Shown here in pieces: positions 2,480 to 41,951 of a stretch of 64,000 nt of DNA. How positions within the stretch are numbered: position 1 is the stretch's first letter; every line of letters starts with the position of its first letter. Source of the stretch: a virus. The translations under genes were made by a program, and so were the position numbers. The stretch covers positions 11,529-75,528 of IMG/VR virus record IMGVR_UViG_3300012919_000005; one strand, written 5' to 3'. The notes under the pieces are model-generated. The model saw nothing but the letters and a program-made list of their open reading frames with translations. It was not told the origin of the DNA and searched no databases.

Positions 2480-4062
2480 TAGCTAAATACTCTCCTTGTT
2501 GACGCAACTGGTTGACCTCCCATGTTTACTGCAACTATCTCTCTTATACTCATTCCTATTAAATGTCTTGGGTCTCTAAATTGATTTGCCCAGGGGGCTT
2601 TACCTGTACCCGGTTCAAATACTCCATAAGGTTTTTGTGGATATGAATAATCTATATACAATCCTCCTCTTGGCCCTACTATAACTTGTTCTACTTTTGA
2701 TTCTCTTCTTAGTCTACCTGATTGATTCTGTAATCTTGGACGAACCATATTCTTATCCATTGCTCTAGGTAATAATCTATTAATTAAATCTCTTATAAGC
2801 AAACCTTCCTTATCCATTCTAAATCCTGAATTTTGTAAATGCTCTCCTCTTTTATTTGGAGATACTTTACTTAAGGCAACTTTCTTAACTTTTGGTTTCT
2901 TAGTCGCTACTACTGTTTTAACAGCTTTATTACTTTTTGGTGTTACAAAACCTTCTTTCCCTTGTTTCTTTTCGTATCTTACTTTTTCTAACTGTTTTTT
3001 AAAACTTATTTTTGTTTTCTTTACTATACCTTGATTCATTCTACCTGAACTTCTTTGCATAGCTTTAACAGATCTTTCTATTTGTTCTATCCACTGATCT
3101 TCAGATATACCAGCTCCTTCATCATCAAAGTTGGGAGAGTCTGCTATATAATTAACTTTTTTTAATCCTGTTAAAGTACTTGCATAAGCAGTCATCTGTG
3201 TATTAAATTCTTCAGTGAATAAATCTAAAAATTCTTTACTGTCACTTTTATCGGGAGCACCAGTATTTCCTACTGATCTTCCTGGCATCATAACAATTCT
3301 TATTGTATGATTTCTTTGTATACTATTTTTTGTTTTTCTTCTATCTACTTTAGTACCATATTTATACTGAAAATAGTTTAGTATAAATCCTTTTTCCCAG
3401 CCTAGCCAATCTTCAGTACTTGCATTTCCAACTATACCAGCAATAATTGCATTATTTATATTATTACCTTCAGAGCCTGGTCTAGTTTGTGCTTGAACAC
3501 TAGTAGCTTGACTCATAGTAAATCCACTCAGTTGTTGCATTGCGCCTTGTTTCTGAAACTTTTGAACAAGTTTACCATGTTCAGCTGTAGAAATTCCTTT
3601 ATGCCATTTTTTTATAACATTCTTTTTTAAAGATCTTATTGCGTTTGCTGCCCATTTTTTATTTAGATTACCAGACTTTAAAGTTTGTCTTCTATTTACA
3701 CATGTAAAAGTATAACTTTTACCATTATCACTTACCCATCTACCTGCTCCATCTTTTTTAGTATACCAAGTAGGTCTTTTACCAAACTTCATCCAACCTT
3801 CTAAATGCTTTTTAAACGCTTTCCAAGATTTATCAGTTTCTGATTTACCATCTCCTTCCATATATGCTTTAAAAGCTAATGCTGTTTCATCGCCTGTGTC
3901 TTGGTCAAAATCTTTAATTTCTTGTATAATCTTCTGTTTTAAAGAGTCTAACCAATCTGATTTATTTATAGTAAAAGTTAAATACTGAATAGAAGAAGTA
4001 TCTCTTTCATTTTTTATTCTATGATACTCTTGTATTGCTTGCTTTCTTCTTGCTATGGACAT
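2479..4062 (-). CDS. Tail completion protein (T5 p143-like C-terminus) with a long basic N-terminal extension
   Basis: C-terminal LQNQSGRL...YSYPQKPYGVFE...RDPRHLIGMSIREI motif; lies between head completion and tail terminator genes. Confidence 0.6.
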   Translation of the reverse strand: MSIARRKQAIQEYHRIKNERDTSSIQYLTFTINKSDWLDSLKQKIIQEIKDFDQDTGDETALAFKAYMEGDGKSETDKSWKAFKKHLEGWMKFGKRPTWYTKKDGAGRWVSDNGKSYTFTCVNRRQTLKSGNLNKKWAANAIRSLKKNVIKKWHKGISTAEHGKLVQKFQKQGAMQQLSGFTMSQATSVQAQTRPGSEGNNINNAIIAGIVGNASTEDWLGWEKGFILNYFQYKYGTKVDRRKTKNSIQRNHTIRIVMMPGRSVGNTGAPDKSDSKEFLDLFTEEFNTQMTAYASTLTGLKKVNYIADSPNFDDEGAGISEDQWIEQIERSVKAMQRSSGRMNQGIVKKTKISFKKQLEKVRYEKKQGKEGFVTPKSNKAVKTVVATKKPKVKKVALSKVSPNKRGEHLQNSGFRMDKEGLLIRDLINRLLPRAMDKNMVRPRLQNQSGRLRRESKVEQVIVGPRGGLYIDYSYPQKPYGVFEPGTGKAPWANQFRDPRHLIGMSIREIVAVNMGGQPVASTRRVFS

Positions 4063-4698: not shown

Positions 4699-6735
4699 TT
4701 AACTAGCTTTGTAGTTTCTGATAACAACTGCGTCAGAACCGCCGATGATGTCATCAAATCCAAGTCTTTGTGAAGCCACAAGTACTCTTCTCTGATTAGC
4801 TACATCGTAGTCTGATTCAATTGTAACGCCTCTTAATCTAGGCATAACGAAGTTTCTAGCATATAAAGCTACAGCGTGAGTCTTATTAGCTGCTCTTGCT
4901 GCGAATTCATCACAGATTAATACTCTAGATCCGAAGACCTGACCAATCTCACCAGATAGCTTAGTTGCCATATCGCCAACGAGGTTAGCGTCTTGGAACT
5001 CAGCATCTTCTAGCAAGTTGTAGTATGCTTCTTGTGATACAATATATACGACTTCATTTGGATTTACACCATATTTGCCCATTGATTTTCTCATTTCTAA
5101 TAACTCTGTTGCAGTAAGTTTATCAGCTGCGAAAGCTTCTGAACCTACGAGTACATTTGAAGCATCAGTAGCTTTGTGAACTAGTCCATCAAAAATACCT
5201 GATGTGTATGTACCTTGTGCATTGTTACCAAATAAGATAGCATTTTCCATACCTCTTGCATGAGCTCTAACCATTGATTCTCTGATTAATGGTAGAATTG
5301 GCATAATCGCGTCTTCTTCTGTTTCATTACCAATAAATGATTTTGAAATCAATTTCTTAACAGTTAATGTTTTTTCTGTTAAGTCGATACCGCCTCTATC
5401 ACCAGTAGTTACATAAGAGTCGCCTCTTTCTGATAAGTTACCGTGTGGGCTTGCACCGTCGCCTGTACCAGCAGCTGATACGAATTCAGCGTATCCTGCA
5501 TCTGGTAAGATTGGCATAATCATTGAAGCACTAGTCATTGCAACTTCTCTAAATAGAGGAGCTAAGACTAATTCATTTTGAATGTCTCTTTCAACATTAG
5601 TTGAAACAACTTGTTCGAAGTCTGCAGATGATACTGCAACACTTGAGTCAGCGTTTACTTTTTCTATGATACCTTGACCATATTTTGTGCTTTCAATTGA
5701 TTTCTGTCCAGTAATAACTGAAAGAACTTTTGCGTCCATGATTTCCTCTTTATGAGTTTCTTTCCAGTTAGAGTTTGTACCTCTATCTGAGAAGATTCGC
5801 TTGGACTCTCTCATCTTCATGATTTCATCTGATTTCTCAGTTAAATCTTTTTGTAGTTCTGAAACTACTGATGAAAGCTCTTCATTCTTTTCTAACAGTC
5901 TTGACTCGACATCATTTACTAATTTCTCGGCACCGGATAATCCAGCTTCGATTATAGTTTTCTGTTCGTCCTGTTTTGCCTCTTGAACAGCCTTTGCTTC
6001 AGCCTCGACATCAGCAGCTTTTTGAAGTTCTGCGTCGTCTTTAGCTTTTTGCTCTGCTTGTTGCATAGCAATAGTAGTTGCAGTTTTCTTAGCAACTTCT
6101 TCAGCAAATGCCTTCAGATCAAATTCTGGACTCTGAGTGTCATTTGACATATCTTTCTCCATATTATCCGCATTTGCGGCACTTGGCTGCTCAGTTTTGT
6201 CAGTAATAACTGACTCCACAGAGTGAGCCTTGTTAAAATGCTGTTTAAACTCTTGATACTCATCATCGCTGTCAAATGACTTTGATATTGAGAAAGTAGC
6301 AGTTTGATTAGCTGGTATGCTAACCACTGATACTTCAAGAAGTTCAGCACTTTTTATAAAAAATCCGTCAGTTTCTTTATTGTATTCAGCGTCCTTGACC
6401 TTGAAACCAACGGAAAAGGCTCCAAGGACACCGTCTTTAATTAGGTCTACTACATCTCCAGCAGACTTTGAAATTTTTGCTTCTATTTCAAGGCCGTTTT
6501 GAGTAACATCGCAATATTTTGCTCTACCAATCGGTCTATCATAGTTGTGATTAAAAAGAATAATTGGGTTATCCCCATAATTATCTAAACCACCTTGTTT
6601 CCATGCATTGTGATCAATTACATCTCCGGTTCTATCTAGTGCACTAGTACTAGCTAGACCTTTAATATTAATTGAACCATCTTCAGCAACATCAGATTTC
6701 TGAAAAGTGTTAGTCATGTGAAATATCTTTTTCAT
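4699..6735 (-). CDS. Fused HK97-type prohead protease + delta/scaffold domain + major capsid protein
   Basis: N-terminal protease motifs (ILFNHNYDRPIG, AFSVGF, LLEVSVVSIPAN), a coiled-coil middle and an HK97-fold capsid C-terminus (ETEEDAIMPILPLIRESM, RVLVASQRLGF). Confidence 0.88.
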   Translation of the reverse strand: MKKIFHMTNTFQKSDVAEDGSINIKGLASTSALDRTGDVIDHNAWKQGGLDNYGDNPIILFNHNYDRPIGRAKYCDVTQNGLEIEAKISKSAGDVVDLIKDGVLGAFSVGFKVKDAEYNKETDGFFIKSAELLEVSVVSIPANQTATFSISKSFDSDDEYQEFKQHFNKAHSVESVITDKTEQPSAANADNMEKDMSNDTQSPEFDLKAFAEEVAKKTATTIAMQQAEQKAKDDAELQKAADVEAEAKAVQEAKQDEQKTIIEAGLSGAEKLVNDVESRLLEKNEELSSVVSELQKDLTEKSDEIMKMRESKRIFSDRGTNSNWKETHKEEIMDAKVLSVITGQKSIESTKYGQGIIEKVNADSSVAVSSADFEQVVSTNVERDIQNELVLAPLFREVAMTSASMIMPILPDAGYAEFVSAAGTGDGASPHGNLSERGDSYVTTGDRGGIDLTEKTLTVKKLISKSFIGNETEEDAIMPILPLIRESMVRAHARGMENAILFGNNAQGTYTSGIFDGLVHKATDASNVLVGSEAFAADKLTATELLEMRKSMGKYGVNPNEVVYIVSQEAYYNLLEDAEFQDANLVGDMATKLSGEIGQVFGSRVLICDEFAARAANKTHAVALYARNFVMPRLRGVTIESDYDVANQRRVLVASQRLGFDDIIGGSDAVVIRNYKAS

Positions 6736-11927: not shown

Positions 11928-13709
11928 CTATTTTCGTATGGTATAGATTTCAACGGGCTCATTCTTTCCTTTAACCTTTACTTGGTCTAAAAACTCGTAA
12001 TCGTAATCATCGAGTAAACTGTGTTCGGAAATTATTAAGTCAGTATCGTACTCTTTACAACTTGATTCTAAACGCGCAGCAAGGTTGACAGAATCCCCAA
12101 GAACGCTATAGTCGAAGCGAGTGCTAGAACCAAAGTTTCCGACCACGCAGAGTCCTGTATTGATTCCCGCTCCTGTATTAATTTGATCCAAGCCTTCTTC
12201 TCTGAGTCTTTCATTTAACTCTCCTAATGATTCTCGCATTTCGAGAACCGCCTTGGTTGCATTCTCCACTTGATTTTCATCGTCAAGTGGTGCACCCCAA
12301 AATGCCATTATACAATCTCCCATATACTTGTCAATTGTACCGCCATGTTTTAATATAATCTCTGTTTGATTGTCTAAAAATCTATTTATTAACTCAGTTA
12401 ATCCTTGTGGATCTTTTTGATATTTTTCCGATATTGGTGTAAATCCTCGAATATCAGAAAATAAAAATGTTAGTCGTTTTGTCTCCCCACCCAATCTCAG
12501 CAATGTTGGGTCTTTTTGTAATTTTTTAACCAAGGCAGGACTAACGTATGTCCCAAATTGTCGTTTTATTTCCATTTTCTCGAAGTAGGTCTTTATAAAA
12601 TTCCTGAAACTTTCAATACTCCAGAATAAAATCGATATTAAAATAATGCCTGAAACGTCAAATAAGTAAGAAGATTGAAAGGCATACCAGGCTCCATATG
12701 CTGAACCTCCTACAACTAGCACTAAAGCGGGCAAGCTTAAATAAATTCTACTAGCTGTTAGTAATAAAACGAGCAAAGCTAAGACTGCAGCTCCTAGCTC
12801 CGCTCCTGCACTCCAATTTGGAATTGAAGGCGCTGTGCCTGATACTAAATTATGCAATACATTTGCTTGTACCTCATGCGGGTATTTAGCTCCAGATGCA
12901 GTAGGAACTGGATTTACCACTCCTTCTGCTGTTACTCCAAATATAACAAAAGGTGCAGGAATTGGATCAGCCATATATTGTGCTGCAGTTTGTCTATAAA
13001 ACTTTACATTCGTATTTATCCAAATAAACCCATTAGCATCGGTATTCATATTTGGATAGTTAGGAACTCGAATCCACTCTACACCTGTATCTCCAGTTTT
13101 AATTTGATAGCTTGGGTCGCCTACAGCGAGTCTAAGCATTTCTAGTGCAAAACTTGGGTATATTTTTCCCTCACTTCCTACGACTACGGGCAGTCGCCTG
13201 ACGACGCCGTCTAGCTCTGGTGAGGAGTTTACGATACCTTTGCCGTCTGCGCTTACCGATAAGATTGGTAATTGTCGTAAAATTCCTGGATATGTTAATA
13301 GCCATTCTAATGGATCACCTCCTAATTGAGCAGTACCTACATGAGGGCCTAGCTCAGATGCTTGTGTTGATGCTGCGTAAGCTAACACTGTGGGTTTATT
13401 GGCTAATGCACTTGCTAAGTACAAGTCATTTTCGTTGCCACGTAAATCTGGGTCAGGCATAAGAATAGTAAAGCCCCCTATTCCAGGAGTCCTTTCTATC
13501 ATTTGTCCATATAGTTTTCTTGGAAGTGGATAACCTCCGTATGCTTCGACGATGTTTTCATCGATGTCGACAATTAGAATATTGTCATTTTGAATTTCTG
13601 GTTGACTATTCATAATATAGTCGAATGTTTTTAGTTCTAGAATTTGTAGAGGGTACGGATTCCAGATAAAGAATCCGAGTACCACTCCAAAAGTAATTAA
13701 TCTTACCAT
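11928..13709 (-). CDS. CHASE2-domain class III adenylate cyclase
   Basis: CHASE2 motifs (IVDIDE, DGVVRRLP, PSFALE), three TM helices, cyclase domain FSDIRGFT / DKYMGD / FDYSVLGDSVNLAARLE with the ATP-specifying Lys and Asp. Confidence 0.92.
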   Translation of the reverse strand: MVRLITFGVVLGFFIWNPYPLQILELKTFDYIMNSQPEIQNDNILIVDIDENIVEAYGGYPLPRKLYGQMIERTPGIGGFTILMPDPDLRGNENDLYLASALANKPTVLAYAASTQASELGPHVGTAQLGGDPLEWLLTYPGILRQLPILSVSADGKGIVNSSPELDGVVRRLPVVVGSEGKIYPSFALEMLRLAVGDPSYQIKTGDTGVEWIRVPNYPNMNTDANGFIWINTNVKFYRQTAAQYMADPIPAPFVIFGVTAEGVVNPVPTASGAKYPHEVQANVLHNLVSGTAPSIPNWSAGAELGAAVLALLVLLLTASRIYLSLPALVLVVGGSAYGAWYAFQSSYLFDVSGIILISILFWSIESFRNFIKTYFEKMEIKRQFGTYVSPALVKKLQKDPTLLRLGGETKRLTFLFSDIRGFTPISEKYQKDPQGLTELINRFLDNQTEIILKHGGTIDKYMGDCIMAFWGAPLDDENQVENATKAVLEMRESLGELNERLREEGLDQINTGAGINTGLCVVGNFGSSTRFDYSVLGDSVNLAARLESSCKEYDTDLIISEHSLLDDYDYEFLDQVKVKGKNEPVEIYTIRK

Positions 13710-21719: not shown

Positions 21720-22323
21720 ATACATTTTAAATCCGAGAGATAATTGGGAAAGGGCGACACGACATATGTCGCCCATTCTCGACTATAGAGCAAAGCACGG
21801 ACTAATAAAGAAGGCTAAGAGGAATACTGACAATCTTTTGAAGGTATTCGCTGAATCAAAAGATGTGTTTATTTTCGACCTTGATAAAACGACTTTTATC
21901 AGACCGAAGATATTCACTCATAAGATTAAATTTTCTTTCAAGAAGGGTTTCTATCTTGTTGAGGATTTAGCAACTTATATCTTTTGGGATTCTTTTATCG
22001 TGTCCTTATTTGATAGACCCCTACCACTAGCCAAAAAGATGAAGAGATTCATTCGAGAAGGCAAAAAGGTAGGTATCTATACTGCTAGGCAATATCGTTG
22101 GTTTTCCAAACTTTGGATAAGGTTAAAAATTGGTAAGGTTTCTTTTATCAAATTTAGACCTAAAGGCGATAACACTATCGACCACGAGTTGAAGGAAAGG
22201 TATCTAAAAGAGTGTATTCATACTTACGATTACTTCACCTTTGCTCATATCGTTGCTTATGATGATAATGCAGAGATTATCAAGATGTATCATCAAAACG
22301 ATATAGAGGGTATAAAATGTTAA
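21703..22323 (+). CDS. HAD-superfamily phosphatase (nucleotidase / PNKP-phosphatase-like)
   Basis: Motif I FDLDKT, motif II YTAR, motif III K, motif IV YDDN. Confidence 0.7.
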   Translation: MKMKLKYILNPRDNWERATRHMSPILDYRAKHGLIKKAKRNTDNLLKVFAESKDVFIFDLDKTTFIRPKIFTHKIKFSFKKGFYLVEDLATYIFWDSFIVSLFDRPLPLAKKMKRFIREGKKVGIYTARQYRWFSKLWIRLKIGKVSFIKFRPKGDNTIDHELKERYLKECIHTYDYFTFAHIVAYDDNAEIIKMYHQNDIEGIKC

Positions 22324-22583
22324 GCGTTTCAATGGTTGTCGCAACTGTTGTCTTTTGGAGCATGGGGGTAGGCTTAGTCGCCTACGCCCTTGCCTTTATA
22401 GACAAGAGAATACGAGCGTATTACATCTGTATTATCTTCGGTAATGCAATAATACTTTTAACTAGCCCTTTGATTTATCAGAGTGAATTTAATATCGGTA
22501 TCTTAACTATGGTTATGGTATCGGCTCAGATTAAATCAGGATTAGGAGAAAGGAAACGATTAAACAATGGGGGTTGGTTATGA
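22317..22583 (+). CDS. Membrane protein (about three TM helices)
   Basis: Hydrophobic 88 aa; coupled to the upstream gene. Confidence 0.55.
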   Translation: MLSVSMVVATVVFWSMGVGLVAYALAFIDKRIRAYYICIIFGNAIILLTSPLIYQSEFNIGILTMVMVSAQIKSGLGERKRLNNGGWL

Positions 22584-22746
22584 AATGGTTATTTCAAGAT
22601 AATCCTACGCCTACCCAAATTGCTAATCGTATAATTTTTAACGCATGGGTAAAACGCCAAAAGAAAACATGGTTGAATGTGCCTTTTCTAGGTATCTTTC
22701 TGATTACTGCTTTGGTTTGGGTTTTATTCTTTATGGGGGTATTTAT

Positions 22747-22941
22747 ATGAATGGTAAACGACCTTTTGTAAGGGAAAATGCCTATGATTTAGCCGATATG
22801 GTAGCAAAAGAATTTGCTAAACATAATCCTGACAAGAAAACGATTCGAGAGATTCAGTCGGAATTATATTTTAGAACAAATGCTGTTGCTAAAATAATCG
22901 GGCAAATCATAGAGACCTATTTTAAATCCTTGCCTAAATGA
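22747..22941 (+). CDS. Hypothetical protein (MNGKRPF...)
   Basis: C-terminal part of track ORF 22645-22941; G-rich RBS before this ATG. Confidence 0.45.
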   Translation: MNGKRPFVRENAYDLADMVAKEFAKHNPDKKTIREIQSELYFRTNAVAKIIGQIIETYFKSLPK

Positions 22942-23069
22942 GTAAAAATCGGGTGCAACGATTAGAGGAGCGGTGGTTTTGGATAAGACTAATAATGGAA
23001 TTTCTTAGAACGATGATTCCTGTTCTTGTCCTGATACTACAAATCGTTGTATTGCAGAAATTACTCTAG
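22938..23069 (+). CDS. 43-aa single-TM microprotein
   Basis: Manual translation ...EFLRTMIPVLVLILQIVVLQKLL; paralog at 28398-28538. Confidence 0.55.
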   Translation: MSKNRVQRLEERWFWIRLIMEFLRTMIPVLVLILQIVVLQKLL

Positions 23070-23120
23070 GTTTGCGATTTAAGGGAACGGCTTGGCTAGA
23101 GCCGTGAAAATCTAGCCATT

Positions 23121-23172
23121 AGCGTGGTGGATTCTTTACTCGACTGGTTGGATCCGCCACGCTTTTTTTTAT
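23121..23172 (+). terminator. Rho-independent terminator closing the pre-early operon
   Basis: AGCGTGGTGGATT...GATCCGCCACGCT followed by a long T tract. Confidence 0.75.
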
Positions 23173-23331
23173 TTTTTATTTTTCTGCGCCTAAGTAGTAG
23201 TACGACGACGACTTTTGTAGCGCGTCAGCGCCAAAGTGCAAGTACGAAGTATAAAACTGGTCTGTCTGCGCGGCCGCGACATTTGTCCCATATTATGCGA
23301 AGTCTGTCCTTCCCTCCCCACCTACCCCATT

Positions 23332-23360
23332 ATTATATCACAAAAATTTGAGCATGTCAA
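23332..23360 (-). promoter_or_regulatory. Leftward sigma70 promoter with no downstream ORF
   Basis: TTGACA-17-TATAAT. Confidence 0.75.
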
Positions 23361-23403
23361 GAAAAATATGAAAAAACTTTTTTGAAAAAACTTTCGCAAT
23401 TGC

Positions 23404-23432
23404 TTGACAAAACCCATTTCGCCTTATATAAT
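23404..23432 (+). promoter_or_regulatory. Sigma70 promoter (leaderless transcript)
   Basis: TTGACA-17-TATAAT; ATG at 23440. Confidence 0.8.
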
Positions 23433-23439
23433 AATACAC

Positions 23440-23598
23440 ATGAAAAACGAAAAAACAATCGAAAAGGTCAAAAGACCAAACAAGAAAGTTTTATTACGCG
23501 AGATTGCTGACATGACTGGCAAAAGCATCAGAGACCTTGATAGCTTAGGAAGAAGCAACATCAGCACAATCGAATGGGTAAAAGAACTTGTGTCCTAA
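23440..23598 (+). CDS. 52-aa protein resembling the C-terminal module of A2-like proteins
   Basis: MKNEKTIEKVKRPNKKVLLREIADMTGKSIRDLDSLGRSNISTIEWVKELVS; compare DIASLEKATKIDL in 24594-24923. Confidence 0.55.
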   Translation: MKNEKTIEKVKRPNKKVLLREIADMTGKSIRDLDSLGRSNISTIEWVKELVS

Positions 23599-23682
23599 TT
23601 TCTGAAGTGTAAGCGACTTTATTACTCAACGCTAGACATCGGTCCCTATTGGCACGGGACGGTTGTCCGCTTTTGCGCGCCG

Positions 23683-23711
23683 ATTTTACCACATCTATTC
23701 TAGCTTGTCAA
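23683..23711 (-). promoter_or_regulatory. Leftward sigma70 promoter with no downstream ORF
   Basis: TTGACA-17-TAAAAT. Confidence 0.65.
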
Positions 23712-24036
23712 TACCTGCGTGAAAAATAATTCAACTTTTTTATTTGCTAAGTCTCCCTAAAACAAGGGTCTTGCCGACCTTCTCGCAAATCCCCTACAAC
23801 CCCCATTCTTACTCACTTCGCAAACCTTATAAAATAGGGTTCTCCAGTGATAGTAAGTACTAACTATGCGAAGACCATGGCACAAGTGTTTCAAAGGTAG
23901 CCGCCCCGCGCGCCCAAGTGCGAAAACGATAAGTGCCAAAGTGGTGAGCCTGCGCCAATAAGTGCAAAACTGGTAAGTGCTAGGTCTACTTTAGTGGGCA
24001 AGTGGCCGCCGCGAGTCTAGAATAAGTCTTATTTAT

Positions 24037-24065
24037 ATTGTATCATGCTTTTAAAGACTTGTCAA
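24037..24065 (-). promoter_or_regulatory. Leftward sigma70 promoter with no convincing downstream ORF
   Basis: TTGACA-17-TACAAT. Confidence 0.65.
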
Positions 24066-24171
24066 GACTTTTGCTGACTTGCGCCGACTTTTTTAAGGCT
24101 TTGCTACGGTTTCGCGTCCGGCCCCCGAGAATTCCTTTGCGTAAGTTTATTAATATTTCTTTTGCATTTGC

Positions 24172-24200
24172 TTGACACTACATCAATAGCTTGATATAAT
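24172..24200 (+). promoter_or_regulatory. Sigma70 promoter
   Basis: TTGACA-17-TATAAT. Confidence 0.8.
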
Positions 24201-24206
24201 ATATAC

Positions 24207-24340
24207 ATAATTTGAAGTGAGGAAACCACCGAACACCAAAAGCGACCTACGGGTCGAGAGAGTAGAAGTGATTCGCTGTAGGAATTGAAGCTATACGGCA
24301 AAGATTCAAAAAAATGTTGGCAGTCTTCCCCGAACTCGCT
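24207..24340 (+). ncRNA. Candidate small structured ncRNA
   Basis: Own promoter, no credible ORF; stems TTTGAA/TTCAAA, CGACC-TACG-GGTCG (UNCG loop), GCTGTAG/CTATACGGC. Confidence 0.45.
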
Positions 24341-24351
24341 TTAAATTATAC

Positions 24352-24380
24352 TTGACAAGACAATGTCAGCGTGATATAAT
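24352..24380 (+). promoter_or_regulatory. Sigma70 promoter (leaderless transcript)
   Basis: TTGACA-17-TATAAT; ATG at 24388. Confidence 0.8.
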
Positions 24381-24387
24381 ATTAAGT

Positions 24388-24504
24388 ATGAAACAGAAAA
24401 GATTACCGAAAAAAATGACTGCCGAGATGAAACTCGTAATAGTAAATCTAATAGCCATTGGAGTAGGAGTAGCAATACTGATATGGGACACATGGTTAAG
24501 GTAA
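24388..24504 (+). CDS. 38-aa leaderless single-TM microprotein
   Basis: Manual translation MKQKRLPKKMTAEMKLVIVNLIAIGVGVAILIWDTWLR. Confidence 0.55.
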   Translation: MKQKRLPKKMTAEMKLVIVNLIAIGVGVAILIWDTWLR

Positions 24505-24528
24505 GTTTGAAAAAGATTAAGCAATCAC

Positions 24529-24557
24529 TTGACAAAACCTTAAACGCAGTATATAAT
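24529..24557 (+). promoter_or_regulatory. Sigma70 promoter
   Basis: TTGACA-17-TATAAT upstream of the A2-like gene. Confidence 0.8.
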
Positions 24558-24593
24558 ATAAAGTATAAATTAAATATTAAAACAGGAGTAGAA

Positions 24594-24923
24594 ATGGCAT
24601 CAGCTAAAAATTACACAGATGAAATGGTCAACACAATGACCGAACAATACCAAGCTAATCCGACAAGGGAAACTGTTGACGCACTAGCAAGAGAATTTGG
24701 CAAAACTACAAGAAGTATTATTGCTAAGTTATCAAGAGAAGGCGTATATGTTGCTCAACCAAGAACAACAAAAACAGGCGAGCCTATCGTTAGCAAAAAT
24801 GAGATTGTCAATGACATTGCTAGCCTTCTACAAGTTGAAGTTGATGACATCGCTTCTCTTGAGAAAGCAACAAAGATTGACCTCAGAAACTTAGTGGAAA
24901 GACTCGAAGCAGTCGTTCAGTAA
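24594..24923 (+). CDS. T5 A2-like DNA-binding protein
   Basis: AGGAG RBS; NYTDEM...ALAREFGKTTRSIIAKLSREGVY...DIASLEKA resembles T5 A2. Confidence 0.7.
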   Translation: MASAKNYTDEMVNTMTEQYQANPTRETVDALAREFGKTTRSIIAKLSREGVYVAQPRTTKTGEPIVSKNEIVNDIASLLQVEVDDIASLEKATKIDLRNLVERLEAVVQ

Positions 24924-24988
24924 GAAAGTGATGAGGTAGTGTTAAAACTACCTCGCCACAGTCAAGATAACCTCGTTAAAAATAGTTC

Positions 24989-25017
24989 TTGACAAAAGGT
25001 TATTAGCGAGATATAAT
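24989..25017 (+). promoter_or_regulatory. Sigma70 promoter
   Basis: aaatagttc-TTGACA-17-TATAAT. Confidence 0.8.
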
Positions 25018-25023
25018 ATATCT

Positions 25024-25185
25024 TATAAAATAAAAAAAGAACAGTAGTGAAACTACGCAGACAATGACCAACATTGCGTAGTTTGAAAGTGGTAAACCTA
25101 CTCTAGCTATGAAAAATACCCTATCACATAGCAGATAGTGCACTTTGGGAAAGTGGCGGGATTTAACTACTGAGCTCAAGAAAGT
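25024..25185 (+). ncRNA. Candidate ~150-nt structured ncRNA with a possible pseudoknot
   Basis: Closing stem CAGTAGT/ACTACTG; AAACTACGCA/TGCGTAGTTT; GCTATG/CATAGC crossing CTATC/GATAG; CACTTT-ggg-AAAGTG. Confidence 0.55.
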
Positions 25186-25197
25186 GAAAAATAGTTC

Positions 25198-25226
25198 TTG
25201 ACAAAAGGTTAAAAGCTTGATATAAT
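25198..25226 (+). promoter_or_regulatory. Sigma70 promoter driving the large non-coding unit
   Basis: aaatagttc-TTGACA-17-TATAAT. Confidence 0.85.
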
Positions 25227-25232
25227 ATACAT

Positions 25233-26040
25233 ATCAAAAACAAAAAAAACAAGGGGATTTCTGACTCGCCAAGCAAGTAGTAATCTGAGCATTAGCCAGC
25301 ATCACTACAGCGAGAGTCAGAAACCACGAGAGGCATCTCATTAAATATTGCCGTATGCTCTTTCAATGATTAGAGGGACACGATATCAGAGTAAATCATT
25401 CGACAGTTGCAGGTTGCTAGTAGTTAACAGATTCACGGAAGAATAAGGGAACTAGCCGTTTTAACTCAAACGATAAGGAGTAAGTGCAATACTACAGCAG
25501 TAAGTGTGTAAGTGCGTAGTCTCAACCGATTCGGTAGCAGACATAAGAAGACCTTCTCACGAGGGCAAAGCCGACCAGTTAGCCTGTAGTTCCCACTTCT
25601 CGAGCAGTTTGTCGAAACTTAAAAACCTACGGGATTACGCAGTATTACAGTAGTAAAACAGTAAATCTTCGCGTGATTGACACCAGATACAGCGATAATA
25701 TCAGGGAGTGTTTAGTAGCAAAACGCTTCGGTCATCAAGTCCTGCAGATGTAGGAAACGACAGATAAAGGTGAACTACCATAAGAACGGCATCTCTATCT
25801 CTAGTGTAAAAGTGATGATTGTAAAGAGACGCTATAGTAGACAAATGACTTCTCGAACATCATTTGAAGTTTGCTAGAGTTCTTTACCAAACTAGCACTT
25901 TCAACCTAGTGTAAAAGGTGTAGGTTTTTAGGACGCTATTGTAATAAAATGCCGACCTACTGCACGACAAAGGAGTAAACTTTCTAACTGTGTAAACAGA
26001 TTAAGTTTGAAGGGCGACTCTTCGGAGTCGTCTTTTTTTG
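25233..26040 (+). ncRNA. Candidate large (~800 nt) ornate ncRNA
   Basis: Bounded by a consensus promoter and a strong terminator; no ORF of 60 aa or more in six frames; many local and long-range complementary stems. Confidence 0.65.
26012..26039 (+). terminator. Rho-independent terminator
   Basis: GGCGACTC-TTCG-GAGTCGTC-TTTTTTT. Confidence 0.9.
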
Positions 26041-26088
26041 TCTCAAATGCAGATATCACAAAATTTCAAGGTTAATTTAAAAAAGTTC

Positions 26089-26117
26089 TTGACAAACAAC
26101 TTAACGCTTGATATAAT
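26089..26117 (+). promoter_or_regulatory. Sigma70 promoter of the early operon
   Basis: TTGACA-17-TATAAT, then AGGAG RBS. Confidence 0.8.
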
Positions 26118-26140
26118 ATATAGTATAAAAAGGAGAAAAA

Positions 26141-26488
26141 ATGGATATATGGACAATGCTTAAACAAATTGAGAAGTCTGGAGACTGCTTAATTTATGGA
26201 GTGCTAGAGATACAAGGTGTAGCAGAAGATTTATCTGGCTGGCCTGAGTTCGATAGTAGTGAACCTATGAGCCACTTATATCTCATGGATTCACAGGACA
26301 TACCAAAGCAACTTATGTTAGATGCCTTTCAAGTAGCATACAACAATACAAGTTGCGAGTATGACTCTTACAACAATATGCTAGAAGCAGTTGGAGAGTA
26401 TATAATAGAAGAATTAAAAAAGAAGCAGTGCGTATGTGGAACAATAGATTGTGAAGATGCATATGGCTGCGTAACACACGGAGTATAA
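26141..26488 (+). CDS. Hypothetical protein
   Basis: AGGAG RBS; Cys-rich C-terminus. Confidence 0.6.
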   Translation: MDIWTMLKQIEKSGDCLIYGVLEIQGVAEDLSGWPEFDSSEPMSHLYLMDSQDIPKQLMLDAFQVAYNNTSCEYDSYNNMLEAVGEYIIEELKKKQCVCGTIDCEDAYGCVTHGV

Positions 26489-26490
26489 GA

Positions 26491-26781
26491 ATGGCAGATA
26501 GTAGAAAAACGAAGGGAGTCAAAGGCGACCAAAGTGGTAAAGTGATGCCATTCCCAACTCTCGATAGAGTAGCATTCTATAGAGAACACTTACAAAGAAG
26601 TATGCGTTCTACATTAGAGTTATACTCTGAATACATAAACATACAGGATAGGCTAGTATCAGAAGTAATAGAGTGCGAAAACTGTATGCTAGAATTAGTA
26701 GAAGAAATAGGCAGACTTGAAAAAGTCTTAAATCAAACGGCAATACATCAAAAGGAGGTGCACGATGCCAGCAAAATTTAA
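26491..26781 (+). CDS. Hypothetical coiled-coil protein
   Basis: Coupled ORF with GGAG RBS. Confidence 0.55.
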   Translation: MADSRKTKGVKGDQSGKVMPFPTLDRVAFYREHLQRSMRSTLELYSEYINIQDRLVSEVIECENCMLELVEEIGRLEKVLNQTAIHQKEVHDASKI

Positions 26782-26983
26782 ACCAAGTGAAAAAATATAC
26801 AAGCGAGGAGTTCCTGCTAGTAAACAAAAAACTAGGCATTACTACCTGCACAACACACCAAAGCAAGAGTTATTTGATTACATCAATAAACATAATGCTA
26901 AACCTAAAATTAGACAAAAGTGCTTAAACGAATTAGTTCGCAGAGGTATCAAAGTAGTCTGGGAGGTGCAAAGTGGCAGTTAA
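26765..26983 (+). CDS. Hypothetical basic protein
   Basis: AGGAGG RBS. Confidence 0.6.
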   Translation: MPAKFKPSEKIYKRGVPASKQKTRHYYLHNTPKQELFDYINKHNAKPKIRQKCLNELVRRGIKVVWEVQSGS

Positions 26984-27116
26984 AAGTAGATGGCAACAAG
27001 CACATACCTCGCACAAGAAGAAAACGGCACAAGGCGATTCTCACCCAAGAATTAGCTTAAACATGAACAAAAATAAAAAGCGTTCATTTAAAAAATACAG
27101 GGGGCAAGGCAGATGA
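26973..27116 (+). CDS. Small basic protein ending KKYRGQGR
   Basis: GGAGG RBS, GTG start; C-terminal motif common in marine phages. Confidence 0.55.
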   Translation: MAVKSRWQQAHTSHKKKTAQGDSHPRISLNMNKNKKRSFKKYRGQGR

Positions 27117-27401
27117 GAATAGTATATCTTCCCCAGACCGAGTATAAAAACTACCAACGCAAAGTAGCAAAACTTAAGCAAAAGGGCATTAATTTAGACA
27201 TAGTAGTAGCACAACCAAAGAAAAGAAAGGTAAAGCTAACTGTAAACACTGAATACGATTGGCAGGAGTTAGACAGACTATGCGAAAGTTAATCAAAAAA
27301 ATTAACCACGAAGTATGGCGACCTTATGATAGTGGAGTAGTAGATAATCTACTGCTTACTATCGGGGTCGCTTTTTTCGTATATATAATAGGAGTAGGCA
27401 T

Positions 27402-27800
27402 ATGATAAATGAATATGGCAAATTTGTGGACTCCACCACAAGTAGCGAATCTAAGTATACAGGTGACCTAGTAGCAAGACTAACAGTTTTGCAGACCAAA
27501 CACAAAGATATCGCATGGAGTAGATTAATGACTTCTGCTATAGGAATGTTAGCAGAAAGTGGTGAATTTGCTGAAATAATGAAAAAGATATTATTTCAAG
27601 GCAAAGTAATGAATGATGATAATAGGTATCATATGAAGCGTGAACTAGGAGATATCCTTTGGTATTGGATTCAAGGGTGCATTGCGCTAGGTTATGAACC
27701 TGAAGATGTAATGAAAGAGAATATTTCAAAGCTAGAAAGTAGATATCCGAATGGTTTTGAGATTGCAAGAAGCGAATACAGACAAGAGGGGGATATATAA
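27402..27800 (+). CDS. mazG: MazG-like nucleotide pyrophosphohydrolase
   Basis: GMLAESGEFAEIMKK...KRELGDILWY...NISKLESRYP. Confidence 0.85.
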   Translation: MINEYGKFVDSTTSSESKYTGDLVARLTVLQTKHKDIAWSRLMTSAIGMLAESGEFAEIMKKILFQGKVMNDDNRYHMKRELGDILWYWIQGCIALGYEPEDVMKENISKLESRYPNGFEIARSEYRQEGDI

Positions 27801-28405
27801 TGGCAAATCATGTATATTTTAATATAGACCTAAGTTTAGATGCAGGTCAATCAGAATTAGTAGAGAAACTAGGTAATTCTTGTCGCCATGCTCAGGGAGA
27901 GATGCAGTGGATAACTTATGAAGTAGAAACTCTACCTATATATCCTGTGCCTTATGATGAAGAAGACTGGTATAGCTGGGGTTGTGAACAAATGGGAGCT
28001 AAGTGGGTGAGCGTAGATGACTGGAATGAGAATATTATTAGTGGTCATTCAGCTTGGAGTCCTCCAATACCTTTTATTACAAACCTAATACAACACATAT
28101 ACGACCAAGTAGGTGGTATACCTAGTGCAAAAATGACATATGAAGACGAGTTTAGAAACTTTATAGGAGTGTGTGAAGTATGGATTACAGGTGATGATGT
28201 GGATTGGGATTACTACGAAGTAGAAGGTAGTGATTTGAATGAAGCTATGCAAGAGTGGAGTGGCTGGGATATTGACAGTCCAGAGTTTGACTGGTGGGCT
28301 TTAACTGAAGCTAAAAATGGTGATAAGTATGAGCCTCAAGAAGTAATAGATGAAATGGTCTATGGCTTCTTTGAAGATAAGGAAGTAAAGGTGAGACATG
28401 ACTAA
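27800..28405 (+). CDS. Hypothetical acidic protein (DUF1281/YubB-like motifs)
   Basis: MANH...DWYSWGCEQMGAKW...SAWSPP. Confidence 0.55.
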   Translation: MANHVYFNIDLSLDAGQSELVEKLGNSCRHAQGEMQWITYEVETLPIYPVPYDEEDWYSWGCEQMGAKWVSVDDWNENIISGHSAWSPPIPFITNLIQHIYDQVGGIPSAKMTYEDEFRNFIGVCEVWITGDDVDWDYYEVEGSDLNEAMQEWSGWDIDSPEFDWWALTEAKNGDKYEPQEVIDEMVYGFFEDKEVKVRHD

Positions 28406-28538
28406 GCAAATGAGAAAAAGACAGAAGAAGTTAGAATACGAACTAGCGAAAACAAAACACACGCTTGAACTTATAAGAACGATAGTGCCAGTTGCAGTTC
28501 TAATTCTACAAGTAGTAATTCTAAGTAAGGTGATATAA
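28398..28538 (+). CDS. 46-aa single-TM microprotein
   Basis: Manual translation ...ELIRTIVPVAVLILQVVILSKVI; paralog of 22938-23069. Confidence 0.55.
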   Translation: MTKQMRKRQKKLEYELAKTKHTLELIRTIVPVAVLILQVVILSKVI

Positions 28539-28795
28539 TGACTGAGTATAGTGAAAGAGTAGTAAAACGAGCTAAAGAAATAGCTGCTGAAGCTTGGGCA
28601 GGTAAAATAAGGGATATTCATATGCACAGGCTAAACAGTATGTGGTATGAGCCAGAACCTGATGTTGCTAAAGACCAAGGCGTGACTGATATAACCTACA
28701 ATAGTGGTAAAATTACGAGAGATGGTAAGACGATTGTAGAGGGAGTAACTGGAGAAGACCTAATATCAAAATGGGAGAAAACGAATGAATTATAG
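28538..28795 (+). CDS. Hypothetical protein
   Basis: Coupled ORF. Confidence 0.55.
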   Translation: MTEYSERVVKRAKEIAAEAWAGKIRDIHMHRLNSMWYEPEPDVAKDQGVTDITYNSGKITRDGKTIVEGVTGEDLISKWEKTNEL

Positions 28796-29111
28796 TAAAG
28801 AAATGACGCTAGATATGGTGAGTTGTTATAAGGAAGCTCCAAACCGTGCCACCGTTGCGATTCTCGCAGAAAGGTATGGCAAGTCGGAGAAGTCAATAAT
28901 TGGAAAGCTATCTAAAGAAGGTGTGTATCAAAGGCAAGAGTATAAAACAAAAGCTGGAGAGAAGCCAATAACAAAGGCTGAGATAGTAGAAAATCTAAGT
29001 GGAGAACTGAACGAAAATTTGAGTGGGCTAGAGAAAGCTCCGAAAGAAGTATTAAAACGATTGTGGTTTGCACTAGAGGAATATAGATGGAGGGCAATAT
29101 GCGAAGACTAG
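28785..29111 (+). CDS. Second A2-like DNA-binding protein
   Basis: NYSKEM...LAERYGKSEKSIIGKLSKEGVY...KTKAGEKPITK...GLEKAPK aligns with 24594-24923. Confidence 0.7.
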   Translation: MNYSKEMTLDMVSCYKEAPNRATVAILAERYGKSEKSIIGKLSKEGVYQRQEYKTKAGEKPITKAEIVENLSGELNENLSGLEKAPKEVLKRLWFALEEYRWRAICED

Positions 29112-40580: not shown

Positions 40581-41951
40581 ATGTTTTTTGGGAGAAAAGC
40601 ATTGACACTTGCATCAGCACTGTTGCATCAAATTATATCACAAGAACATATTTCAGTTTGGACAGAACTGAAGGAATCTTATTTACCTCAAGAATATAAA
40701 TCGCTATGGAAAATAGTTAACTCGCATGTCGACAGATATGGGAGACTTCCTTCGTTTGAAGATTTAAAGTTTGAAATTAGGGATTCCAAACTACAGGAAA
40801 TGGTTTTTGCGATAGAATCGATAGAAACAGAAATCGATGCAGACACTCTGCTTGATTACCAAAAGAACGAATACACACAAAATGAGATATTATCTCAGAT
40901 AGATAAGTATGTAGATGAAACGATTGCGTTCTCTACAGCTGAAGAAAATCTCGAAGGACTACAAGAAATAGTTATCGAGGTTTCAGAAAAGGTAGATACT
41001 ACTCCGCCTGAAGAAAACATGTCAAAAATAGAACTGTTTGATGCAGAAGACGAACTTGGCAAGTATGTAACTTTAGGGTTAAATCAGGAGTATGATTTAG
41101 ACTTTTCATTTTCTCCCAAGGACTTAGTGCTAGTGGGAGGACGACGAGGTGCAGGTAAATCTATTACCTGTGCAAACCTGGCTAATAGTATATACGAAAA
41201 AGGAAGGTCTGCTGTTTATTTCACGATTGAGATGGATAGTAGACAAATCCTACAAAGAATCTGTGCTTTAGGAGCAAATGTTCCAGTTAACAGATTAAAA
41301 CAGAAAAACTTATCCCAAGATGAATGGAATAGAGTAGCAAAATGGTGGTGTGATAGATACGAAGATAGTGAAGGTCATTTAGTTGACTTTTATGAACATC
41401 GTAACTTTGATGCCATGCACACTAAACTAGTTAAGGGAAGTTTACGAGAAGATAGGCAAATAGAGATAATCTATGACCCTATACTTACTATTGGAAAAAT
41501 TGACGCAGTTTTAAAAACTAAAATGAATCAATTACCAGATGTTGGAGTAATCATTGTAGATTACCTCAACCAAGTCAAACGCTCGCTAGCACAAGGTCGT
41601 CAGTATGAGTGGACAGAACAGATAGAAGTTAGTAAAGCTTTGAAGTCTATGGCTCAAGAGTATGAAACTATGGTGTTCTCTCCATATCAAACTGATGCAA
41701 CAGGAGAAGCAAGATTTGCAAAAGGTATACTTGATGCTGCTGATGCAGCCTACAGTCTTAACGCATGGAATCAAGAAGATAGTTGTATTACTTTCAGCTG
41801 TCAGAAAATGAGAAGTGCACAAATGAGAGACTTTACTTCTGAAATGGATTGGGAAACATTACGAATTGGACCGCAATCTGTGATGAATCCAGAAGAAAGA
41901 GAAGAAATGAAAGAAAGTATGGCAACAGGAGAATCAGTAAATGAACTTTAA
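40581..41951 (+). CDS. Replicative DnaB-like helicase (T5 D6-like)
   Basis: Walker A GGRRGAGKS, FTIEM, IVDYLNQ. Confidence 0.88.
   Translation: MFFGRKALTLASALLHQIISQEHISVWTELKESYLPQEYKSLWKIVNSHVDRYGRLPSFEDLKFEIRDSKLQEMVFAIESIETEIDADTLLDYQKNEYTQNEILSQIDKYVDETIAFSTAEENLEGLQEIVIEVSEKVDTTPPEENMSKIELFDAEDELGKYVTLGLNQEYDLDFSFSPKDLVLVGGRRGAGKSITCANLANSIYEKGRSAVYFTIEMDSRQILQRICALGANVPVNRLKQKNLSQDEWNRVAKWWCDRYEDSEGHLVDFYEHRNFDAMHTKLVKGSLREDRQIEIIYDPILTIGKIDAVLKTKMNQLPDVGVIIVDYLNQVKRSLAQGRQYEWTEQIEVSKALKSMAQEYETMVFSPYQTDATGEARFAKGILDAADAAYSLNAWNQEDSCITFSCQKMRSAQMRDFTSEMDWETLRIGPQSVMNPEEREEMKESMATGESVNEL

Follow-up and report, generated by a model that had tools for sequence, protein, structure and literature searches.

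The locus examined here raises the question of what is transcribed from a stretch of some 800 nt that lies between a perfect promoter and a strong terminator and contains no ORF of appreciable length. It belongs to a window of 64 000 nt, the whole stretch of DNA that was analysed, taken from a 75.5-kb IMG/VR virus record. The original prediction read the stretch as a large ornate non-coding RNA, and our analysis backed that reading with covariation among relatives, an independent promoter-to-terminator unit and a fold rich in pseudoknots. We consider it very likely that positions 25233-26039 of the + strand form an independent gene whose product is a non-coding RNA of ~800 nt, a member of an uncatalogued family of 0.8-1.25 kb found in a sizeable group of marine phages, uncultured and only distantly T5-like; we have little doubt that the RNA gene is genuine, that it stands alone, that its product is structured and that Rfam lacks the family.

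Both ends of the unit were as originally described, with a perfect promoter that carries TG ahead of its -10 element and a UUCG-capped terminator followed by a T run. Because a 12/12 promoter is expected by chance only ~0.001 times per 10 kb, the site at 25198-25226 is not a chance occurrence. It forms part of a promoter island (23.3-26.1 kb) comprising seven perfect + strand sites, this one included, as well as three - strand sites scoring 11-12/12, and several of the island promoters drive short ORF-free units. The claimed absence of any ORF of 60 aa or more between promoter and terminator held in all frames, the longest being 49 aa with a GTG start. The + strand of the unit folded better than its shuffles with a z-score of -4.1, compared with -2.9 for the - strand. 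At more than 500 nt, without a conserved ORF and with its own promoter and terminator, the unit has the hallmarks of a large ornate non-coding RNA. Transcription is predicted to start near 25233, and expression 'very early' in infection, as originally proposed, we infer only from the host-type consensus of the promoter. All motifs quoted in the original prediction were present where it had placed them, among them TTTCTGACTC at 25258 and GAGTCAGAAA at 25314, TGCTAG at 25872 and CTAGCA at 25892, and the repeat modules CTAGTGTAAAAG (25801 and 25906) and GACGCTAT (25828 and 25932). The features of the unit are as follows.

25198 to 25226, + strand: sigma-70 promoter matching the consensus at 12/12 positions (TTGACA, 17-nt spacer ending in TGA as an extended -10, TATAAT)
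25233 to 25257, + strand: A-rich unstructured leader, from the sequence
25258 to 25323, + strand: 5' hairpin with the originally predicted 10-bp stem, from the MFE fold, motif positions and alignment; lineage-specific
25328 to 25339, + strand: small conserved hairpin GAGA-GGCA-UCUC in a boxB-like position, 99 % paired
25356 to 25364, + strand: boxA-like word UGCUCUUUC following the small hairpin, 8/9 core bases
25365 to 25400, + strand: H2 (25365-69 with 25396-400), 92 % paired, double-sided changes at 5/5 pairs
25416-22 with 25450-56, + strand: H3 of the long arm, 99 % paired, double-sided changes at 7/7 pairs
25429-32 with 25440-43, + strand: H4, the distal part of the long arm (25416 to 25456), 86 % paired, double-sided changes at 3/4 pairs
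25457 to 25472, + strand: hairpin H5 (25457-61 with 25468-72), 100 % paired
25465-67 with 25602-04, + strand: LR1, from the H5 loop; 27/29, 28/29 and 26/29 sequences paired at the three positions, each showing 4-5 pair types
25478-80 with 25599-601, + strand: LR2; 27/29, 26/28 and 24/26 sequences paired at the three positions, the types being GC, AU, UA and GU
25606 to 25705, + strand: double-pseudoknot core (P1, PK-A, PK-B, T3 and P3), proposed from the alignment
25606-10 with 25615-19, + strand: P1, a core hairpin
25627-30 with 25650-53, + strand: PK-A, interleaved with PK-B as an H-type pseudoknot, 95 % paired
25638-42 with 25667-71, + strand: PK-B, interleaved with PK-A
25672-74 with P3 loop bases 25692-94, + strand: T3 (3 bp), 98 % paired
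25683-89 with 25699-705, + strand: hairpin P3
25706 to 25728, + strand: hairpin P4 (GAGTGTTT/AAACGCTT), from the alignments, with partial support
25729 to 26008, + strand: variable 3' domain of predicted hairpins and internal repeats, varying in length and aligning poorly
26009 to 26039, + strand: intrinsic terminator, a UUCG loop on a GC-rich stem of 12 bp (26009-36), then a U tract

Public sequencing runs supported the presence of the RNA. All or part of the stretch was contained in 20 runs, eight of them on record as RNA, from four studies. Contigs were compared over 22000-29000 for three RNA runs of one study (X4, X7 and X10) and one DNA run. A 764-nt contig of X7 corresponded to 25254-26015 with zero differences and contigs of X4 and X10 also covered the gene, while the DNA run gave a single contig across the whole 7 kb. 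The 800-nt RNA is present in marine RNA libraries in a manner consistent with the predicted unit, contigs giving no ends, strand or level. Two further patterns were suggestive and were not counted: flanks without RNA-library cover (e.g. 23638-24105 and 27382-28083), contigs not being evidence of ends, and a contig word depth in X4 of ~1200 over the RNA vs ~111 downstream (flat at 14.5 in the DNA run), which is not evidence of level.

The protein encoded immediately upstream (24594-24920) matched more than 595 IMG/VR stretches, and via this gene 80 related loci were examined. In 68 of these a homologous small DNA-binding-like gene was followed by a promoter-RNA-terminator unit, 48 of the units being non-redundant. 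The gap between gene and unit ranged from 55 to 730 nt across the 68 loci; short gaps were empty, and in long ones lay one or two small units, each under its own promoter. Measured from one perfect promoter to the next, the related units spanned 862-1302 nt, with a median of 57 aa for the longest + strand ORF and no ORF conserved. Homologues lacking covariation, or conserving short ORFs instead, had been named at the outset as findings that would count against an RNA; the homologues covary, as set out below, and conserve no ORF. The promoter block was 75-85 % identical across the 48 units, the A-rich leader was present in every aligned relative, and a T run lay 53-59 nt ahead of the next -35 in 46 units, preceded in 39 of the 48 by a hairpin of -8 kcal/mol or better whose stem sequences differed. 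In all relatives more distant than L004, the nearest at 94 %, blastn detected only islands of similarity, of which those at 25600-25713 were strongest. As a side observation, leader bases 25241-25249 paired with the terminator U tract (26033-26039) in the MFE fold, and both elements were invariant in composition across relatives.

Comparison of the RNA-encoding DNA with 50,697 phage records gave zero matches, and the upstream protein had no match in the 50,697 cultured phage records (tblastn) or in T5. We therefore assign the locus to a phage group that has no cultured relative there. Demerecviridae polymerases from Proteus and Vibrio phages shared 45 % identity with the DNA polymerase of this phage, which is only distantly T5-like; the original prediction had taken it to be T5-like. 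When viral contigs were scanned for a gapped core motif of 14 bases, nearly all matches were due to chance, L118 alone being real, and the chance matches were reused as a negative control.

Twelve helices showed compensatory changes, comprising three local hairpins, the 5-bp H2 stem, a two-part arm, two long-range pairings and the double-pseudoknot core. Overall, tested pairs were 92-95 % paired vs at most 46 % in slid controls, and the formal count stood at 44 pairs, 35 of them with double-sided changes, a complement of helices and pseudoknots befitting a large ornate RNA. For Domain I (25360-25482), which holds H2 to H5, 23 sequences in a plain MAFFT alignment were 95 % paired vs at most 44.5 % when slid, with double-sided changes at 18/21 pairs. 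A strict all-against-all scan returned only nine helices, eight of them anatomically coherent, and added the hairpin at 25328-39 (double-sided changes at 3/4 pairs, 27 cells), LR1 and LR2; the ninth, a weak call of 3 bp (25869-71/25885-87), fell in the 3' domain and had a register unlike that of the stem originally predicted there. LR2 closes a variable insert (25478 to 25601) with three GUAAGU words, at 25480, 25500 and 25508. Covariation of LR1 and LR2 indicates that, around this insert, Domain I and the core are joined by these two pairings over ~120-140 nt. A permissive version of the scan was swamped by A-run/T-run and G.U artefacts and was replaced by the strict one. The palindromic H2 loop (GAUAUC or GUUAAC in ~10/23 sequences) was considered as a dimerization site and set aside, as it is not universal.

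The long-range architecture originally proposed was not upheld. Its two nested stems, TTCGACA/TGTCGAA (25399/25610) and GGGAACTA/TAGTTCCC (25447/25587), were ~20-70 % paired in relatives at most positions and clash with the covariation-supported H2, H3 and P1. The fate of two local stems was mixed. The one at 25258-25323 was correctly placed and appears in the MFE fold, but it is specific to the window and its nearest relative: the hairpin is common only to the 94 %-identical L004, other relatives having different hairpins or lacking the part. For the GAGTGTTT/AAACGCTT stem (25706-28; P4), only the inner pairs are kept and the rest is not conserved, relatives carrying at this point a hairpin built on G-U-G...C-A-C.

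The core contains the unpaired invariant words GAUUGA and UAAAACAG and 13 invariant columns in 35 sequences. Among 18 MAFFT-aligned sequences, 85 % of cells were paired vs 30-44 % when slid, with a covariation score of 0.46 vs at most 0.12 that none of 500 shuffles reached; over both alignments slid partners gave 28-46 % and the score was 0.46-0.52, with controls again at most 0.12. We built a covariance model, R1, from the nested core helices only, excluding PK-A and T3. R1 gave exactly one + strand match per related locus (32 matches), and its sole match in 886 kb of unrelated viral DNA was the contig already known to carry the RNA (L118). In the resulting 32-sequence alignment 91.8 % of cells were paired vs at most 46 % when slid, and 17/23 pairs had double-sided changes; PK-A and T3, although outside the model, nonetheless paired at 95 % and 98 %. 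A second form of the core was found in 11 members (L006, L007, L015, L022, L032, L038, L041, L042, L049, L051 and L060), in which a ~45-nt hairpin capped by C(UUCG)G takes the place of PK-A on the same helix, PK-B, and P1, T3 and P3 are retained. From the mixed alignment of 35 sequences RNAalifold recovered only seven pairs, the input combining two core variants and register shifts.

Outside Domain I and the core, the family varied by larger blocks. The 5' domain was absent from L008, L073 and L077, and the 3' domain ranged from ~300 to ~600 nt among relatives. Within the 3' domain, 25861-77 resembled 25404-20, the start of the Domain I arm, at 82 % identity, and two ~40-nt modules (25801/25906 and 25828/25932) recurred 104-105 nt apart. 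The longer relatives L035, L013 and L015 showed similar repeats of arm and core words, and together these patterns suggest that the family grew by module duplication. Variation of both end domains and the existence of two core forms indicate that the RNA is modular, and part of it may therefore be dispensable or processed.

The main rival to a single RNA with one closed fold is accordingly a composite transcript, in which separable RNA modules share one promoter and are perhaps processed. The loss of the whole 5' domain in three relatives, the spread of 3' domain lengths, the exchange of the core pseudoknot for an extended hairpin in 11 members and the internal duplications would all fit such an arrangement. 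Against it, LR1 and LR2 covary while joining Domain I to the core over ~120-140 nt, each unit has a single promoter and a single terminator, and the RNA-library contig spans 25254-26015 unbroken. We regard the composite transcript as a minority possibility that deserves to be taken seriously, and a single stand-alone structured RNA as the better account.

The architecture of the core also brings to mind a ribozyme or ligand-sensing RNA, with the invariant unpaired bases of the double pseudoknot as its active site, given that nested or double pseudoknots and invariant single-stranded bases are typical of catalytic and ligand-binding cores. No Rfam ribozyme, intron or riboswitch model matched, however, and neither flanking exons nor cleavage signatures were found, which leaves this explanation improbable.

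The alternative that the original prediction itself raised, a divergent member of the GOLLD or ROOL families, was addressed by comparison with known RNAs. No Rfam 15 model matched the window at gathering score by cmscan, and at E-values up to 10 on 22900-26200 the matches (E 0.35-7.9) were to unrelated eukaryotic or small-RNA models and none was relevant. The covariance models of GOLLD (RF01998) and ROOL (RF03087) gave no match at gathering score in the window or at E up to 10 on 22900-26200; likewise no Rfam 15 model for OLE, HEARO, group I/II introns, RNase P, tmRNA, 6S or IMES matched. In the literature searched we found no description of the 800-nt RNA, pieces of which could be among the 10,006 candidate IMG/VR motifs of PMC10690425.

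GOLLD is phage-borne, lies near tRNA islands, is abundant, has many pseudoknots and forms RNA-only nanocages, its function being unknown (PMC12286853). The 800-nt RNA resembles it in being phage-borne and ORF-free, in its length of ~800 nt or more, in its many pseudoknots and in combining one conserved with one variable part (PMC12286853). The two differ in that the conserved part is the 3' half of GOLLD but the central and 5' portion of the 800-nt RNA, and in that GOLLD is carried by Lactobacillales or mycobacterial prophages and the 800-nt RNA by marine T5-like phages. ROOL, too, is a large ornate RNA of phages and prophages, near tRNA islands, with an abundance of up to rRNA level and no known protein partner (PMC12286853, PMC5737381), and forms RNA-only nanocages (PMC12286853). 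Its likeness to our RNA lies in being large, ornate and of phage origin (PMC12286853, PMC5737381), but the present family is longer and more variable in length. Membership in either family might seem favoured by the comparable size class, the phage origin, the pseudoknots, the high expression and the tRNA neighbours of some relatives (PMC12286853), yet the lack of a match to any Rfam model at gathering score, and to either model up to E 10 on 22900-26200, makes this very unlikely. With no detectable GOLLD or ROOL membership, it was the second of the options originally offered, an undescribed large non-coding RNA, that stood, and the family is new to the literature searched as well as absent from Rfam.

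The nearest phage lineage does have an RNA of comparable kind. T5 rnaX (T5s08, NC_005859 40848-41566) is 719 nt long, is annotated as a 'stable RNA with unknown functions', has its own promoter and adjoins tRNA-Arg; no description of it was found in the literature searched. It shares with the 800-nt RNA the character of a stand-alone non-coding 'stable RNA', at ~720 nt and with its own promoter, but sits in a tRNA region rather than beside a small DNA-binding-like gene. With filters off, R1, a model of the core only, found nothing in rnaX on NC_005859 38500-44000, its best score being 9.8 bits elsewhere in the locus. Separately, we noticed that the 5' part of rnaX scored 38.3 bits with the Rfam tRNA model (gathering score 29), although the record does not annotate it as a tRNA; this tRNA-like element corresponds to T5 41432-41503 (2933-3004 of our NC_005859 extract, L200, minus strand).

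Strand asymmetries point to the + strand as the RNA strand. In the 48 units C(UUCG)G occurred 67 times on the + strand vs seven on the - strand, and G.U cells outnumbered A.C cells in the tested helices by 60 to 12. CUUCGG was 15-fold above expectation, and AGUAG, AGUAA and GCAGUA were ~2- to 4-fold above; the suggestion of E-loops and tetraloops in the original prediction fits the enriched AGUA/AGUAA words and the C(UUCG)G loops. These data also bear on the idea that the locus acts as DNA, whether as an origin, a ColE1 RNA II-type primer RNA or an RNA-polymerase sink. An island of very strong promoters near a switch in transcription direction, in a phage that encodes a Pol I-type polymerase, could suit such a role, but the compensatory changes and G.U asymmetry reflect selection on an RNA fold, a strong terminator releases the RNA, and the GC-skew turn lies at ~19-20 kb with no origin signal at the locus. 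We judge a DNA-level element to be most improbable.

Coding can be dealt with briefly. Single-base indels occurred inside the conserved core, and at a single location there the peptide-level matches to relatives spanned several frames and both strands, which shows that they reflect nucleotide conservation; together these observations exclude a conserved ORF. That the unit encodes one or more small proteins is barely credible: ORFs of 25-49 aa are present and short peptide-level matches occur in the core, but besides the indels and the multi-frame, two-strand nature of those matches, no ATG ORF with a ribosome-binding site was found in the unit and 19 of 32 cores had stops in all three + frames.

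The 5' part of the RNA offers a possible clue to how so long an untranslated transcript is completed. The boxA consensus, UGCUCUUUAACAA, is an antitermination element of rrn operons. Compared with it, the boxA-like word of the window matches 8/9 core bases and 9/13 overall, and many relatives have UGCUCUUUA, the rrn boxA core, at this position. The exact 8-mer GCUCUUUA was found in 10/47 non-redundant units, 120-178 nt from the -35, and was 21-fold denser at the leader position than in the rest of the loci; with the preceding U it makes up a 9/9 boxA core, other relatives having one mismatch. The word was absent from the subgroups that lack the 5' domain (L008, L073, L077 and L030). BoxA-dependent NusB/NusE complexes shield long untranslated rRNA from Rho (PMC4807359, PMC10250234). 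Like the leader of an rRNA operon, the 800-nt RNA has, close to its 5' end, a hairpin with a UGCUCUUU(A) word after it, and in both cases the transcript is long, untranslated and structured (PMC4807359, PMC10250234); the likeness is one of sequence only, the word being missing in some subgroups and no boxC or leader-trailer helix having been identified. We infer that the word may have an antitermination role, but it may also be conserved for folding alone.

From these elements a mechanism can be proposed for the stand-alone RNA. Host RNA polymerase would produce it in high copy number from the start of infection. In most members the hairpin and boxA-like word ~100 nt into the transcript would recruit NusB/S10, so that, as happens in rRNA operons, the long untranslated RNA would be spared termination by Rho. 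Once folded, the RNA would work in trans like GOLLD and ROOL, as a stable particle with a structural role, built of RNA alone or together with a protein; it would serve neither as mRNA nor as an antisense regulator, and its invariant core would provide the pocket for binding or activity. This functional reading, an abundant trans-acting structural particle aided by a boxA-type leader, is put forward tentatively and may well prove wrong. Our leading guess is that the target would be linked to tRNA or translation, because tRNA or tRNA-like units share the promoter island in relatives. In L081 the slot equivalent to 24989-25192, which separates the upstream gene from the big RNA, holds a tRNA-Glu, and tRNAs lie 4-5 kb from the RNA in L014, L070 and L084; tRNA-Arg lies beside the 719-nt RNA of T5, and GOLLD and ROOL are found near tRNA islands (PMC12286853). 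The boldest version is a new class of kilobase-sized viral RNA machine, a self-assembling particle or a ribozyme with the core as its active centre, which as the most abundant early product of a very widespread set of ocean phages would exploit host rRNA antitermination and take over or shield the host tRNA and translation apparatus; we think this rather unlikely.

To our knowledge, large ornate RNAs without an assigned function are very few (GOLLD, ROOL, OLE and a small number of others), and each has proved structurally surprising. The present family equals or exceeds these in size, and its dozens of divergent members provide rich covariation for modelling, making the 800-nt RNA a ready target for cryo-EM. 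Its carrier phages are common in seawater, judging by the more than 595 IMG/VR contigs with the neighbouring gene, which opens the question of what use abundant marine phages make of RNA, in place of protein, when infection starts. The boxA-like leader, for its part, suggests how phages might protect long untranslated transcripts from Rho.

Several neighbouring elements were also recorded. PHROG profiles identified a head protease/major-head fusion, an SbcC-like protein, MazG and, immediately upstream of the 800-nt RNA, a small 'D5-like' DNA-binding protein; Pfam gave nothing usable on ten neighbouring proteins. The fusion is a 678-aa ORF on the - strand (4699-6735) that matches both head-maturation-protease and major-head-protein profiles, apparently joining protease and capsid. 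A 593-aa cyclase-like protein (11931-13709, - strand) shared 36-39 % identity with the 'adenylate/guanylate cyclase' found in the Methylophilales (OM43) Melnitz phages and in Pelagibacter phage HTVC008M, which may be a weak hint at the type of host. ARAGORN found no tRNA within the window. Directly upstream of the 800-nt RNA, an ORF-free unit with its own perfect promoter (24989-25192) was called as a tRNA by neither ARAGORN nor Rfam; it folds as a four-way junction with a 7-bp closing stem (z -2.36) and is ~73 % conserved in L006 and L007. A second ORF-poor zone (22941-24480) contains perfect + strand promoters at 23404, 24172 and 24352, with another at 24529 just beyond, and strong - strand promoters at 23360, 23711 and 24065, along with repeated AAGTGC words and GC-rich stretches. 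The GUAAGUG word of this zone recurs three times in the 800-nt RNA (25480-25514).
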